Shown here piece by piece: positions 1,902 to 16,321 of a stretch of DNA of 64,000 bases (position 1 is the stretch's first letter; each line of letters opens with the position of its first letter). The translations under genes and the position numbers were made by a program. The DNA is from a virus, in the IMG/VR virus record IMGVR_UViG_3300009081_000012, positions 1-64,000 of that record. One strand, 5' to 3'. The notes under the pieces are model-generated. The model saw only the letters and a list, made by a program, of their open reading frames with translations, searched no databases and was not told the origin of the DNA.

Positions 1902-2103
1902 CATTATACCGAAATAACTATAATGAACATTATACCGAAATAATAATCATTACACCGAAATAATAATGAACATTATACTGAAATAATCATTATACTGAAA
2001 TAATCATTATACCGAAATAATGACGAACATTATACCGAAATAATCATTATACCGAAATAATGATTGTTATACCGAAATAACTTTGAACATTATACCGAAA
2101 TAA
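1902..2103 (+). repeat. 10 direct repeats of CATTATACCGAAATAA (iteron/centromere-like)
   Basis: copies at about 1902, 1928, 1948, 1971, 1988, 2005, 2028, 2045, 2065 and 2088, separated by 1-10 nt linkers. Confidence 0.92.
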
Positions 2104-2115
2104 TTTGGAGGATGT

Positions 2116-2352
2116 ATGGCAGGACAAGGAAGGAAGAAAACGATATTCTTTAACGGAAGCAGATCGGTTCCTATGAGGATTGGAATTATGGAAGATATGG
2201 CGTTGGAAGACCTGGCAAAAAGAAGCGGTAAATCAAAAGCATATTTATGTAATTGTGCTATTGATTATCTATATAATAGTATAGAAGGATATGAAGTGTT
2301 GACAGATTTTCCACTGGTGTCAGAGAACGTTACCACGCAGGAGCAAATGTAA
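2116..2352 (+). CDS. ribbon-helix-helix DNA-binding protein
   Basis: SVPMRI strand, LEDLAKRSG helix and KSKAYLCNCAIDYL helix match the CopG/ParG RHH pattern; GGAGG SD. Confidence 0.75.
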   Translation: MAGQGRKKTIFFNGSRSVPMRIGIMEDMALEDLAKRSGKSKAYLCNCAIDYLYNSIEGYEVLTDFPLVSENVTTQEQM

Positions 2353-2686
2353 TCTTCTTGGTAACATAGTCATAACAATATGTTGTCTCTATTTCATACA
2401 CACGTTTGTCATTGACAATACGGGGTTGTAATTTAAGTGTTCTGTGGTCAAGATCATCTATACTATGAGTGAAAATTCTCAATTCTTCCGGGCGGACAAT
2501 AACAGCTCCTTTGAAAACGCAAGTAGGATTTCTTACCATTTCATAATGAGTTAAACACATATCTTCTATATGTATATGACTCCTCTTTATTTTATTTTTC
2601 ACACAATGTTTGGTAAAGGCTTCACTCACCTCTATTGATAATTCTCTTTGTAATTCTAAAAACCTGTATACTGGTTTTCTGCTCAT
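2330..2686 (-). CDS. hypothetical protein
   Basis: 118-aa ORF, AAGGAG SD. Confidence 0.65.
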   Translation of the reverse strand: MSRKPVYRFLELQRELSIEVSEAFTKHCVKNKIKRSHIHIEDMCLTHYEMVRNPTCVFKGAVIVRPEELRIFTHSIDDLDHRTLKLQPRIVNDKRVYEIETTYCYDYVTKKITFAPAW

Positions 2687-2760
2687 TGTTTTCTCCTTTC
2701 AAAATAGATCGGTTTACTGGTATATGTAATTGTAATTATTATACTATACAATATTATTTT

Positions 2761-2917
2761 TGGAGTGTGGAGCGAGATAGGATTTGAACCTACAAAGGGC
2801 CTTCAGTATGATGATAACAGCCCTACGTTGAAACCTTTTGGCACCGCGCCAGAATACAAACTACAAGTTTATACCCCTCATCATTTAACGGTAGCTTCCA
2901 CGCTACGTTCTCGCTCC
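2761..2917 (-). ncRNA. tRNA-like RNA (~150 nt) with 13-bp acceptor/T helix and expanded anticodon domain
   Basis: GGAGCGAG/CTCGCTCC acceptor; GTAGG-TTCAAAT-CCTAT T-arm; GTAGC/GCTAC D-arm; AGGGC/GCCCT variable arm; 3' end ...CCACACTCCA. Confidence 0.7.
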
Positions 2918-3164
2918 ATAAATTTCACTAGATATTTTTAACATGCGGTTCCGAACACCAAAAAACCACCCCCGTCCAGGAAATAGCTTCCTATGAAAAT
3001 AAATTCGGTTTTAAAACAAACAAACCCGGTCCACAACAAACAACATCTACTTTACCCAGAACTAATCTAATTAAGGCAAACAAATTCAGTACAACACTAC
3101 ATTCAAGCAAACAAATTCTGTATTCCATATCTATCTCCAGCAAACAAATTCGGTTATATACATG

Positions 3165-3211
3165 AAAGAAACCCTGTAATACCCCTCAACAGGAGAGATA
3201 TTACAGGATTA
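3165..3211 (-). terminator. intrinsic terminator after ssb
   Basis: AATCCTGTAATATCTCT...AGGGGTATTACAGGGTT hairpin followed by TCTTTC. Confidence 0.6.
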
Positions 3212-3231
3212 TTATGCCAATTGTTCTCCGA

Positions 3232-3999
3232 TTAGAACACCGGCACGTTGCTTACTCCGGCATTGTTTGCAACGGGCTGTTTCGGAACAAACCCGCCATT
3301 ACCGAAGATATCACCTGCCATATTCAACGGCGCTGGTGCCATGGGTGCCTGTGGCGGTGTAAATGCCTGTTGCACCATATTTGGCAGACTTGCCATATTC
3401 GGCAGAGTGTTCATACCGGGGATGTTTGCGACCCCAGCTTGTACGTTCGGCAGTACTACGTTCGCATAGCCGAATTTCTGACTTCCGGGAATATATGTTG
3501 CGGACTTCCGCGTTGCAATAATCTGCGCCCATATATTGTTATCCGGATGATTTTTGACATTCCAGTACTGAGGCCGTCTGCCCGCTCTGATTTCTTCATC
3601 TACGAGCTCCTGCGCCTCTTCGCCAATCCTGAACTGTGTGATGGTGAACGCAACCCTGTCAATCAGGATGGGCTGACCGTTAGCACCCACAAGAGGAACG
3701 TTGTTCTGGAAATATCTGCTCTGGAAGGTGTGCGGTACGACTGTTGCGTCGAACGCTCTTCCTTTGTTGAGGGTTTTGGCACAGAAATCAGCCAATTTGC
3801 CCCACGCTACGAACTGGAAGAAGTCAGTTCCGGCAACGCCGGTTTTCTGGTTCTTCAATCCGTTGATAGCGCAAGGGATTTTCACCCTCTGGTTAATCTG
3901 AACACCATCTGCCCGAACGTAGCCGGGCGTATAGCTCAACGGTGCACTTACTCTGAAATTCGACCCAAATCCCATAAAAATACCTGCGTTTCTACCCAT
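3232..3999 (-). CDS. ssb: single-stranded DNA-binding protein (divergent)
   Basis: TDFFQFVAWGKLADFCAKTLNKG SSB motif; P/N/M-rich tail ending VPVF; start chosen from the GAAAGGAG SD. Confidence 0.75.
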   Translation of the reverse strand: MGRNAGIFMGFGSNFRVSAPLSYTPGYVRADGVQINQRVKIPCAINGLKNQKTGVAGTDFFQFVAWGKLADFCAKTLNKGRAFDATVVPHTFQSRYFQNNVPLVGANGQPILIDRVAFTITQFRIGEEAQELVDEEIRAGRRPQYWNVKNHPDNNIWAQIIATRKSATYIPGSQKFGYANVVLPNVQAGVANIPGMNTLPNMASLPNMVQQAFTPPQAPMAPAPLNMAGDIFGNGGFVPKQPVANNAGVSNVPVF

Positions 4000-4165
4000 G
4001 GTACAACTCCTTTCGCCTTTCGGCATCAAAAATAATAAATAATGAAACGTCGTGATATACCCATCATAGGGCATATATTACCAGACGCCATAACTATTAA
4101 CTATGACTAATAGCGACTATACGCTGTCATAGTTTACTTTGGGAGACATGGACCACCCACATCCC

Positions 4166-4270
4166 CCAGAACACCTGTCCCCAGACGACCCCAGAGCCAG
4201 AACCAGTATACCAGAACTATCTCCAGCACCTTCCAGAACACCTGTCCCCAGACGACCCAAGAACCAGAAC
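4166..4270. repeat. duplicated CCAGAACACCTGTCCCCAGACGACCC unit; third partial copy at ~6229-6258
   Basis: direct repeats read from the sequence. Confidence 0.7.
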
Positions 4271-4596
4271 TATTCGTCAACATCGACGATACAACAATCA
4301 TTATCAAGGTCGTTGTAGAAGGTGTTTAAAAGACTTAATCCGTCTGCCGGATTATGGTCTTCTGTTTCGATTTCATCTTCCTCAACTTCCCTGAGTTTAT
4401 CGAGGTCTTCTGTGTCGGGATGTACTTTGTTTTCTACAACATCCCTAATGCAACCTCTGGTATAATCATAATATACCAGAACAGAGACATAAAGCGGAAG
4501 TACGTCGTTTTCTGCGACTAACTCAACTCCAGCCTCTGTTCTGATAGTCAATTGTCTACCCACCCGTTTTGTTGTTATTCCTTGGATGGGTTTCAT
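4270..4596 (-). CDS. hypothetical protein, acidic C-terminus
   Basis: 108-aa ORF directly after the upstream gene. Confidence 0.65.
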   Translation of the reverse strand: MKPIQGITTKRVGRQLTIRTEAGVELVAENDVLPLYVSVLVYYDYTRGCIRDVVENKVHPDTEDLDKLREVEEDEIETEDHNPADGLSLLNTFYNDLDNDCCIVDVDE

Positions 4597-4597
4597 G

Positions 4598-6154
4598 TCA
4601 GCACGCTTCCCATTGTGTTAACTGAGAACCTGGAGCTACTACAGCTTTACAGATATACTGTTTTGCTCCGTTGGCTTTGGCGTTGTCGTCTCCTTCCATT
4701 ACGTAGACGATTTTGGCGCCACCGCGTGCCATGATGGCGGTCTTGGTATACTGACCGTTGCCATCTAATTTGCCGGGATTTTGGGGCAGAACCAGTCGAC
4801 ACATCTCAACGCCGTCATTGTTGATAAACAGCTTATATGTCGGCAGTGCCTTGAACTTCCCGATGTACCCTATCAGACCGTTCGTAGTGGGTGCTTTAAC
4901 CCATCTGCCATTATGGAAGAAATTCATGGCAACTACGACCTGTTTCTCCTGCTCTGTTAACGCAATGGTGTTCTGCGCGACCAGTTCAGGATTTGAGAAT
5001 GCCTTGTCTGAATTGGTTAACTGCCCACAGGCAAAGATAGCATGGAAGCATTTTGTATAAACGCCTCTTGCTATGTCGCTGGTCTGTTGTGCTGATAACC
5101 CTGTTTTTGGCAGAGTTACCTTTACTCCAGTATGCTGGTCTGCCGTCATGGTTGAGAATGTTGCCTGAGCCATGGGTATGGGTGCAGGTTGAGGAGTGGC
5201 GACAGCTATCGGTTGAGGAGGTGCCATGGTAGCTTTGGCGAATTCAACCATACCACCAGAGCCAGCATAATTCTCATCGAAGTCATCGTCAGTTGCGGTG
5301 GCAAATTCACCATAGATGCCAGGCTCGTTGTCGAACCCGTCGTCCCAGCCATCATCTGCGAACTGAACAGGAGCATTCATAGAAGTTGTTGCCGAAGCCA
5401 TGGCGGGTGCGACAGCTGTTTGAACCGGTGCTGAGACTGTTTGTACCGGTACCTGGATAGGAGGAGCTTCAGCTGTCAGAGACGGAGCAATTGAGACAAC
5501 GGCCATCTTTGGTAAAGATGTCCATCTGATGTCGTTGTCTTCAGCCCCTGAAGCGAAGTGCATGTACGCTCTGAATGTACTCAGCTTCAGTTCGAGTGTA
5601 CTTTCCGTGGGCTTATACCAAACCCACAAACCTTCATCGAACATCCGCTTCTGAGTGTCAAAGAAGTCTCCTTCTTTTGCACCCTGAGCCAGCTCGTTCA
5701 TCTGCTCCCGGATGAATTCACAACTTCCGGGTTCAAGGGCATAATCCCTCGCTATCTCGAACGCCATCACTTTTGCTGAAGCTGAAACATCTTCTTCAGA
5801 CAGTTCCGGGTCATAAAGATGCAACGCCTCATGAATGATTGAGACGTACATATTATGCCAGAAGAGCGCGTTGATAGAAATCCCCTGCATCTCTGTTTCG
5901 TCTATGATTTTGTCATATGACTTGCAGAAGGTGTGCATGAGATTGATGACTACAGCCCCGCTGTCAGGGGCGCAGTTCGCCAATTCACCCTTCGGAGCTG
6001 TGAGGCTGAACACCACCAGTTTTATCGGACAGGAGCGTTCCGTTCTTCTGGCCATCTCCTGGAAAATGGTGTCCATGTTTCTGATTGCTTTGGTACCACC
6101 GACTAAGCTGGCACCGATAACCGCGGTTTCATTGTTCGTTAGACTATAAATCAT
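4598..6154 (-). CDS. large protein with HExxH metallopeptidase-like N-domain, A/P/D-rich linker and unknown C-domain
   Basis: IIHEALHL motif; start at MIYSL from the GAAAGGAG SD. Confidence 0.65.
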   Translation of the reverse strand: MIYSLTNNETAVIGASLVGGTKAIRNMDTIFQEMARRTERSCPIKLVVFSLTAPKGELANCAPDSGAVVINLMHTFCKSYDKIIDETEMQGISINALFWHNMYVSIIHEALHLYDPELSEEDVSASAKVMAFEIARDYALEPGSCEFIREQMNELAQGAKEGDFFDTQKRMFDEGLWVWYKPTESTLELKLSTFRAYMHFASGAEDNDIRWTSLPKMAVVSIAPSLTAEAPPIQVPVQTVSAPVQTAVAPAMASATTSMNAPVQFADDGWDDGFDNEPGIYGEFATATDDDFDENYAGSGGMVEFAKATMAPPQPIAVATPQPAPIPMAQATFSTMTADQHTGVKVTLPKTGLSAQQTSDIARGVYTKCFHAIFACGQLTNSDKAFSNPELVAQNTIALTEQEKQVVVAMNFFHNGRWVKAPTTNGLIGYIGKFKALPTYKLFINNDGVEMCRLVLPQNPGKLDGNGQYTKTAIMARGGAKIVYVMEGDDNAKANGAKQYICKAVVAPGSQLTQWEAC

Positions 6155-15312: not shown

Positions 15313-15534
15313 TTATTGTATTTTCTGCACCTTCCAATTACGTAAGCCTACCCAGCACATAGACAGGTTAAAAGTGAATAGTGCTGCCTGTGGATACGCC
15401 TTTGTTGCGATGTTTATAACAATGAACCCTATATTAGATATCACCCAAAGGTAAAAACACAAACGATTGCCTTTAGCATTAACATAGGTGCCTATTACCG
15501 CAACTACAGTAAACAACCAACCTATATATTCCAT
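15313..15534 (-). CDS. small PnuC-like membrane protein
   Basis: GWLFTVVAVIGTYVNA..CFYLWVISN..QAALF pattern. Confidence 0.55.
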   Translation of the reverse strand: MEYIGWLFTVVAVIGTYVNAKGNRLCFYLWVISNIGFIVINIATKAYPQAALFTFNLSMCWVGLRNWKVQKIQ

Positions 15535-15545
15535 GATAACCTCCT

Positions 15546-15755
15546 TTATTTTATTAAAAGATTTGGCGAGCAAAATTGACCGTTTGGTCCTTTAATATAT
15601 AAACCAGACGCATTTACCTGATTAGCAAGAAACCGCTCATGTTCAAGAACAGTAAGTAATTCTAATGAACTGTTACCCACTGTAGAAGATGTGAGTGGTT
15701 TATATGCACAGATGTGCTGTCTTGCGAATAGCCATACAAACGCGTAGTTGTTCAT
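15546..15755 (-). CDS. hypothetical protein
   Basis: 69-aa ORF, GGGAG SD. Confidence 0.55.
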   Translation of the reverse strand: MNNYAFVWLFARQHICAYKPLTSSTVGNSSLELLTVLEHERFLANQVNASGLYIKGPNGQFCSPNLLIK

Positions 15756-15793
15756 TATGGTATCTCCCTTTGTTAAATGGTTATTTTGTTACT

Positions 15794-15852
15794 GACGTTT
15801 CGGCCCTCCATAGGCCTTATTCATCAGGGATGCGGTAACAGCACCCGACGCC
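15794..15852 (-). ncRNA. hammerhead ribozyme, type III, with a 4-nt core insertion
   Basis: GGCGUC^ GGGUGC-loop-GCAUCC CUGAUGA AUAA GGCC-loop-GGCC GAAA CGUC: all core nucleotides and three stems present. Confidence 0.8.
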
Positions 15853-15881
15853 AAGCAGTTTAACGTCATGCTTAGGACATT
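15851..15881 (-). ncRNA. small H-type pseudoknot abutting the hammerhead
   Basis: AAUGUC/GACGUU stem; loop CUAAGCA pairs with downstream UGCUUGG. Confidence 0.5.
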
Positions 15882-15889
15882 TATTGTAT

Positions 15890-16321
15890 TTATTGGTGGT
15901 GAACACAACCACACATATCAGGCTCATCAGGAACCCATCCATAAAGCTTATATGGTATGAATGTTGCGTTATCCTTTAAGGTGTTCCTAAATCTATCAGG
16001 GATAATTCCTTGATACCATAAGTTATTGGTGGTTATTGTTCTACCATCATTGTAATGAATGATGAACTTTCTTCCACCATGTCCTTTTAAGCGATTACTA
16101 TCATCGCCAAGTCTATAATGAGCGCCATCCACTATAACTATGGCTGGGTCACCACTCAAAAATAGCACGATGTGTTGTGTCCAGAAAGCACACGTATGGC
16201 AGTGTGTATCTAACAAGTCTCCATCTTCCCTCTCTAAATCTGAGTTGTCGAATGGTTTGCCACATACTACGCACGCCACCTGCTCAAAAACCTGCTCAAA
16301 AATTTGTAATAAATTGTTCAT
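15890..16321 (-). CDS. conserved phage hypothetical protein with Zn finger
   Basis: CVVC..CHTCAFW..GHGGRKFII..TNNLWYQGIIP. Confidence 0.7.
   Translation of the reverse strand: MNNLLQIFEQVFEQVACVVCGKPFDNSDLEREDGDLLDTHCHTCAFWTQHIVLFLSGDPAIVIVDGAHYRLGDDSNRLKGHGGRKFIIHYNDGRTITTNNLWYQGIIPDRFRNTLKDNATFIPYKLYGWVPDEPDMCGCVHHQ

Follow-up and report, generated by a model that had tools for sequence, protein, structure and literature searches.

In a large uncultured phage, the first two open reading frames that run leftward are separated by a spacer of 134 nt, which was originally predicted to hold a variant hammerhead ribozyme interlocked with an upstream pseudoknot, possibly acting together as a switch. 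The locus raises the question of whether these two elements are truly there, whether they belong together, and whether the ribozyme would cut the transcript that carries it. The window, that is, the whole stretch of DNA analyzed here, comprises positions 1 to 64,000 of the viral record IMGVR_UViG_3300009081_000012. The host contig is a 76,981-bp IMG/VR record with a CheckV completeness estimate of 28%; it contains a PhoH-like gene and one tRNA.

Genomic context of the spacer

Genes in the window lie on the minus strand left of approximately 16,400 and on the plus strand right of approximately 16,860. The spacer is on the minus-strand side, and the minus strand is the coding strand of both flanking open reading frames as well as of all cassette elements described below. 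The flanking features are:

15890–16321, minus strand: upstream gene, 143 aa, no family match; stop codon UAA at 15892–15890
15546–15755, minus strand: downstream open reading frame, 69 aa, no family match
15770–15764, minus strand: Shine-Dalgarno sequence AAGGGAG of the downstream open reading frame, 21 nt past the hammerhead

Neither a promoter-like nor a terminator-like site was found in the 134-nt spacer. A close relative of the source phage was found neither among GenBank phages nor in the viral contigs, the protein search or one metagenome scan. The locus had zero BLAST matches among GenBank phages, no loci related to the upstream protein were detected in the viral contigs, and a homology search with this protein returned only the identical protein, on three contigs. 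The metagenome scan for relatives yielded a single chance match (L376), which had neither the knot nor the hammerhead.

Further downstream, an open reading frame of 86 aa (15313–15573, minus strand) likely has its true start at an ATG near 15534, which would leave 73 aa. The 86-aa frame matches the C-terminal half of PF04973 (PnuC/NMN-transporter) alone, covering profile positions 101–174 of 175, and resembles a half-size PnuC-like membrane protein; similarity to the missing PnuC half was absent from the 69-aa frame that precedes it.

A variant type III hammerhead on the minus strand

The type III hammerhead that had been predicted, with a GUC site and the nucleotides AUAA ahead of stem II, is present with all of these parts, on the minus strand (15854–15792):

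15792–15854, minus strand: variant type III hammerhead, from the 5′ strand to the 3′ strand of stem III (RF00008 alignment, structural descriptor, homology to contig L076)
15854–15849 with 15797–15792, minus strand: stem III, UUGGCG with CGUCAG, 6 bp
15849–15847, minus strand: GUC cleavage triplet; U15848 and C15847 are followed by the predicted cut
15846–15847, minus strand: predicted self-cleavage site, C15847 / G15846 (RF00008 alignment; the position matches that in 40 phage type III hammerheads)
15828–15846, minus strand: stem I, GGGUGC (15846–15841) with GCAUCC (15833–15828), 6 bp, with the 7-nt loop I UGUUACC
15821–15827, minus strand: core box CUGAUGA, C3 to A9 (sequence, RF00008 alignment)
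15817–15820, minus strand: AUAA insert between A9 and G10.1, the sole departure from the hammerhead consensus
15802–15816, minus strand: stem II, GGCC (15816–15813) with GGCC (15805–15802), with loop II UAUGGAG
15798–15801, minus strand: core box GAAA, G12 to A15.1 (sequence, RF00008 alignment)

The site has the CUGANGA and GAAA boxes of the type together with an NUH triplet (here GUC), the helix order III-I-II-III, the A15.1–U16.1 and G10.1–C11.1 pairs, and stems of 6, 4–5, and 6 bp. Stem II of a type III hammerhead is expected right at A9 or one nucleotide past it; here it follows after four.

A comparison with the Rfam hammerhead models using Infernal, which had been suggested as a check, gave a result that is weak if taken by itself. 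RF00008 aligned the window hammerhead end to end (E = 0.0062 for 261 nt, E = 1.5 for the whole window), while the score of 23.6 bits stayed below the gathering score of 48.5 bits. Canonical phage type III hammerheads scored 28.3–36.4 bits, all under the threshold, and several of them missed E = 1; because canonical members also fail it, the gathering score says little for the phage subclass. The Rfam type III model misses this subclass (24–36 bits against 48.5), and such cassettes are consequently under-annotated.

We also searched with a structural descriptor built from the core boxes, a UH site, and three stems, in which the insert may be up to 4 nt long. It matched exactly one site in the window. 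In 300 dinucleotide-preserving shuffles, the number of sites per window was 0.15 at the loose setting, 0.007 at the strict one, and 0 for sites as good as this one. A second hammerhead or a second knot was not found in the 77-kb record.

A homologous spacer is present on the viral contig L076. It is 77% identical to the window spacer over about 160 nt, a stretch that takes in some 40 nt ahead of the ribozyme, and its flanking genes are unrelated to those of the window. The hammerhead of L076 is canonical, with a 1-nt U insert, and the differences between the two copies in stems I and III are compensatory. The same contig carries a type II hammerhead at 4860–4930 that exceeds its Rfam gathering score (41.3 bits) and lies 600 nt upstream of the knot–hammerhead cassette; one short gene block of L076 thus has ribozymes on both flanks.

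Contacts between the terminal loops were inspected as well. The complement between loop I and loop II amounts to 2 bp in the window copy, which is chance level; it does not have the (U)GCU/AGC(A) complement that about 12 of the 29 examined hammerheads show. Loop I is in addition perfectly complementary, through UGUUAC (15835–15840), to GUAACA (15787–15792, minus strand), a segment that runs from the last part of stem III into the 3′ tail (6 bp, P about 0.02 against shuffles). A pseudoknot between loop I and the 3′ tail was rejected, as none of 28 other type III hammerheads has the complement and the active fold places its two segments at opposite ends. This complement is probably due to chance or represents a further misfold.

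A pseudoknot shared with many phage gene boundaries

The H-type pseudoknot that had been proposed directly 5′ of the ribozyme, with its second stem running into stem III, was found in that position; S2 ends at 15852 and stem III starts at 15854. Its parts are:

15852–15879, minus strand: 28-nt H-type pseudoknot (consensus match, covariation, placement after a stop codon)
15879–15876 with 15867–15864, minus strand: knot stem S1, UGUC with GACG, 4 bp
15874–15869 with 15857–15852, minus strand: knot stem S2, UAAGCA with UGCUUG, 6 bp
15863–15858, minus strand: knot loop L3, UUAAAC

The consensus of this knot consists of a variable 4-bp S1 with an invariant C–G closing pair, an 8-nt loop C-UGAGCA-U, the L3 sequence UUAAAC, and a UGCUCA that pairs with the loop. 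In the window S1 has the C–G closure, and the six middle loop bases pair with the hexamer that follows UUAAAC. The copy differs from the consensus at two positions which compensate each other (loop G to A, partner C to U), at 0.01 expected chance matches.

The knot is mostly solitary. A pattern with 18 specified bases recovered it at a minimum of 119 loci, in 126 distinct instances, with only a few chance matches estimated in the collection. Among the matches listed, 123 of the 126 knots with a canonical S2 have no hammerhead behind them, and about 2% of the sampled instances are fused to one. These solitary knots at phage gene boundaries have the same 28-nt layout as the window knot and differ from it in that the window copy is fused to a hammerhead. 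Across 133 instances, 95% of the cells were paired, against 81% in shuffles, the paired-cell figures being biased at the three inner S1 pairs because instance selection required them; the outer S1 pair and the outer S2 pairs, which were unfiltered, covary too. Double-sided changes numbered 187 in the same set, against 66 in shuffles, the covariation score was 0.375 against 0.117, and partners slid out of register paired in only 22–44%. The orientation follows from the G–U pairs, which assign the structure to the strand read here, the minus strand in the window.

The position of the knot is tied to the gene upstream of it. Its distance from the stop codon is 10 nt in the window and has a median of 7 nt (quartiles 5–15) in the 128 of 146 knots that have an upstream open reading frame of at least 50 codons, while the distance to the next start codon led by a Shine-Dalgarno sequence is loose (19–90 nt). 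Rfam 15 returned no family for the knot, either with the spacer (E up to 10) or with six canonical knots (E up to 5). Judged from these comparisons, the knot is a very widespread phage motif that is uncatalogued in Rfam.

Several known elements were considered for the knot and rejected. Drum RNA is placed with 3′ terminators in the paper that describes it, a link to hammerheads is not mentioned there, and an Rfam match is absent. Knots of the preQ1 type did not match: on the spacer, Hammerhead_3 was the one family within E 10, and the six canonical knots were unmatched at E up to 5. The Pistol ribozyme (RF02679; PMC4604425) is likewise phage-associated and has a short P1 hairpin whose loop forms a 6-bp pseudoknot, with an A-rich linker, whereas the knot is without P2, P3, and the GU cleavage junction; RF02679 matched neither the spacer, at E up to 10, nor the six canonical knots. 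A UUUAAAC frameshift site was also dismissed, as the window copy reads GUUAAAC and the heptamer lies inside the knot and not ahead of it.

In two contigs the 5′ end of a tRNA lies 3–4 nt past the knot (L271:3991–4098, Val; L317:9318–9425, Leu), so that RNase P would cut directly behind the knot, and in L246, L323, and L324 knots precede tRNA-like sequences that received no ARAGORN call. In L256:675–921, at 40 nt downstream of a knot, the model of the GIR1 branching ribozyme matched weakly, with 28.5 bits and E 0.0025, a score far under its gathering score.

Recurrence of the knot–hammerhead tandem

The arrangement found in the window is recurrent. Tandems of the knot and a type III hammerhead are present in 15 further viral contigs (L076, L150, L154, L173, L199, L204, L206, L210, L216, L233, L364, L365, L367, L368, and L370), and five copies were found on three bacterial or MAG contigs (a gammaproteobacterial MAG, a Polynucleobacter MAG, and a contig of Firmicutes CAG:95). 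Stem III begins −2 to +2 nt from the end of S2 in 10 of the 14 parsed tandems, and the remaining gaps measure 5–15 nt. Of the interlock that had been described, the overlap of knot and stem III is real, but it is not a special feature of this copy: direct abutment is usual in the relatives, without being obligatory. Among type III phage hammerheads that lack the knot, about one third (9–12 of 29) have a GC-rich hairpin ending 0–4 nt before stem III, in the position of the knot; examples are L045, L046, L024, L064, L083, and L107. That both modules, and the cassette that they form, are correctly identified is well supported, and we hold it with high confidence.

The tandem sets the knot 5–9 nt upstream of a defined RNA cut; together with the spacing of 5–7 nt after the stop codon, this makes the function of the knot experimentally addressable.

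Two variants of the arrangement were also observed. In L373:7305–7400 the same knot is followed by a type II hammerhead. The contig of Firmicutes bacterium CAG:95 (L386, approximately 2100–5700) carries three cassettes of knot and type III hammerhead within 4 kb, in which stem I covaries, stem II is identical, and each knot lies 6–7 nt past a stop codon.

The AUAA insert in comparison with related hammerheads

To place the insert among natural hammerheads, IMG/VR was scanned for CUGAUGA-(0–8 nt)-GGCC-loop-GGCC-GAAAC. The scan returned at least 117 loci, nearly all of them obvious type II or type III hammerheads, and 29 non-redundant type III examples among the matches listed resemble the window copy in having a 6-bp stem I and a loop I of 6–7 nt. 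A wider parse comprised 40 type III hammerheads, several of which the search pattern had not supplied. In the matches listed, stem II follows CUGAUGA directly in 68 cases and after one nucleotide, mostly U, in 54. A dedicated scan for inserts of 2–8 nt gave credible hammerheads with UU (L121/L129, L124), CU (L122/L126), and UAU (L123/L128), each of these forms occurring in two or more distinct contigs; above 3 nt, it returned chance-like matches in coding sequence. A scan of IMG/VR for inserts of exactly 4 nt with GNCC/GGNC stems yielded zero credible hammerheads. The 4-nt insert is thus unique to the window copy among the roughly 130 phage hammerheads with this stem II in the matches listed, and among all knot–hammerhead tandems.

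Phage hammerheads flanking genes have been described before (Perreault et al., 2011, PMC3088659). With the phage and prophage type III hammerheads (RF00008, PMC3088659) the window copy shares CUGAUGA, GAAA, GUC, the A15.1–U16.1 and G10.1–C11.1 pairs, the stem order, and a position on the coding strand between phage genes, and its stem I and loop sizes are those of the phage subfamily. It differs from them in having AUAA between A9 and G10.1, where they have 0–1 nt and rarely 2–3.

Insertions at the identical junction are on record. A10 of CChMVd (+) is one extra nucleotide between A9 and G10.1 in an active ribozyme, and a U in this place is even faster (De la Pena and Flores, 2001, as cited in PMC3705267); hammerheads of Penelope elements also carry one extra nucleotide there and are active (PMC4209133). 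These cases differ from the window copy in being one nucleotide long, not four, and in their viroid or retroelement rather than phage origin. The expectation that hammerheads tolerate core insertions is therefore borne out for one nucleotide at this junction (PMC3705267, PMC4209133), and not for four. Core insertions elsewhere in the hammerhead strongly lower activity (PMC3088659). AUAA sits at a tolerant site, yet it is longer than any case found. The insert is specific to this lineage and most likely loops out, slowing the ribozyme rather than conferring a new function. If the window copy is active, a 4-nt bulge at A9/G10.1 would be tolerated in a natural hammerhead; the literature searched has one-nucleotide cases alone.

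Competing folds in the window copy

The pairing on which the switch had been based involves one further segment:

15862–15868, minus strand: UGACGUU, the 3′ strand of knot S1 and the start of L3; complementary to AACGUCA (15793–15799), not conserved in relatives

The 7-bp complement between UGACGUU and AACGUCA is perfect, as had been stated. At the same place, 25 other rows with knot, CUGAUGA, and GAAA, including about 20 true tandems, have a complement of 3–6 bp, which falls to 3–5 bp in the rows accepted by the hammerhead parser; the trivial GUU/AAC contributes to it. By this comparison the 7-bp alternative pairing looks like chance.

We next compared folding energies. Of 13 relatives, 11 have a hammerhead fold that equals the minimum free energy (MFE) fold or lies within about 1.5 kcal/mol of it, and the other two are 3.3 and 4.0 kcal/mol away. 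In the window copy the gap between the hammerhead-enforced fold and the MFE is 8.6 kcal/mol with the upstream hairpin included, and only in this copy do nearest-neighbor energies favor competing folds, by 3–9 kcal/mol. At −31.7 kcal/mol the competing fold is more stable than the hammerhead, which has −20.4 by itself and −21.8 when knot S1, the only part of the knot that is counted, is added. The gap of 8.6 kcal/mol is due to the hairpin GACGUUAA/UUGGCGUC (−8.2) and the helix CUGAUG/CGUCAG. The hairpin competes with the knot, whose full energy lies outside the scope of these programs, while CUGAUG/CGUCAG beats stem III by about 3 kcal/mol whether the knot is formed or not. Taken alone, the hammerhead pays a penalty of 1.9 kcal/mol, similar to that of L233 (1.8). 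The window copy is an outlier twice, by its insert and by its predicted misfolding, and this fits either decay or a lineage-specific conditional fold.

A model for the cassette and its alternatives

The reading that we prefer is a recurrent phage cassette for intercistronic RNA processing, with a ribozyme that works but is probably slowed; our confidence in it is about evenly balanced. It would consist of two independent modules, the knot shortly after the upstream stop codon and the type III hammerhead from the end of the knot. The leftward early transcript would be cut by the hammerhead at C15847/G15846, leaving an upstream message that carries the knot, about 5 nt, and a 2′,3′-cyclic phosphate at its end, and a downstream message that begins with a 5′-OH and the folded ribozyme body, 36 nt ahead of its start codon. 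From its positions relative to stop codons, stem III, and tRNA 5′ ends, the knot appears to belong to the end of the upstream unit, and its position suggests that it could serve as a 3′-end cap or insulator of the upstream message.

A less probable alternative, though one to be taken seriously, is that the window copy is a recently disabled relic, in which AUAA has displaced stem II and abolished catalysis, so that only the knot functions and the cistrons stay on one uncut transcript. The uniqueness of the 4-nt insert among the phage hammerheads with this stem II and all tandems, the outlying predicted misfolding, the 123 of 126 knots listed that do without a hammerhead, and the strong loss of activity from core insertions elsewhere (PMC3088659) would all agree with decay. 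However, the remaining core nucleotides and the three stems are all intact, and the compensatory stem changes relative to L076 indicate selection on the fold over most of the divergence. Inserts of 1–3 nt at the same junction moreover persist in nature, the 2–3 nt forms each in two contigs or more.

It is unlikely, and more so than decay, that the knot acts as a 5′-to-3′ roadblock in the manner of the coremin xrRNA, shielding the downstream RNA against an RNase J-type exonuclease or RNase E scanning, with no role as a 3′ cap. Most knots do precede a gene, and the GUC/GAC stem and the spacer GUUAAACU are common to the knot and to coremin / xrRNA-C of beny- and cucumoviruses (PMC6546385, PMC10520033), where the motif reads GUCCGAAGACGUUAAACUAC (PMC10520033). 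In coremin the loop of the first hairpin (hp1) follows the rule YGAD or YGNNAD, and a second hairpin comes after a spacer of 8–10 nt (PMC10520033). The knot loop CUAAGCAU breaks this rule, and what follows the spacer is an S2 strand, not a second hairpin; the 8-nt loop of the window knot pairs past the spacer, which makes it a true H-type knot, and its host is a DNA phage of bacteria. Position argues against the roadblock as well: the knot is tied to the upstream stop and not to the downstream start, and in the tandems with hammerheads and tRNAs a cut would detach it from the very RNA to be shielded. To our knowledge, bacteria are without Xrn1.

A broader and more speculative proposal, which we consider somewhat less probable still, is that the knot is a dedicated RNA end-cap placed ahead of programmed cuts (hammerheads, and RNase P sites at tRNAs), a counterpart of the nuclease-blocking knots of eukaryotic viruses, and that at this locus knot folding gates an unusually insert-tolerant hammerhead by strand competition.

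The switch of the original prediction fares worse again, and we consider it doubtful. Knot and hammerhead would here compete with UGACGUU/AACGUCA, GACGUUAA/UUGGCGUC, and CUGAUG/CGUCAG, and the cut would depend on the knot folding first, on a factor, or on a ribosome. The 7-bp complement does exist, and the MFE is reached by a fold other than the hammerhead, one that draws on strands of the knot as well as of stem III, at −31.7 kcal/mol against −20.4 or −21.8 in a calculation that leaves the full knot outside. With the knot 10 nt past the stop codon, a terminating ribosome could plausibly disturb it. As a conserved switch, however, the idea does not hold: the full 7-bp pairing occurs in this copy only, and the alternative pairings are unconserved in the approximately 20 other tandems (3–6 nt; 3–5 in parser-accepted copies). 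The relatives have their hammerhead fold at or near the MFE, with 11 of 13 within about 1.5 and the rest within 4.0 kcal/mol. Much of the complement moreover comes free, since GAC and GUU are consensus letters of the knot, and a gap of −2 to 15 nt between knot and stem III argues for independent modules.

That the hammerhead resemblance arose by chance, as the Rfam E-value of 1.5 at whole-window scale might suggest, is scarcely credible, given that 0 of 300 shuffles yield an equally good site, that the site lies exactly behind the knot in an arrangement repeated in about 20 other contigs, and that the spacer is 77% identical to the canonical L076 cassette.
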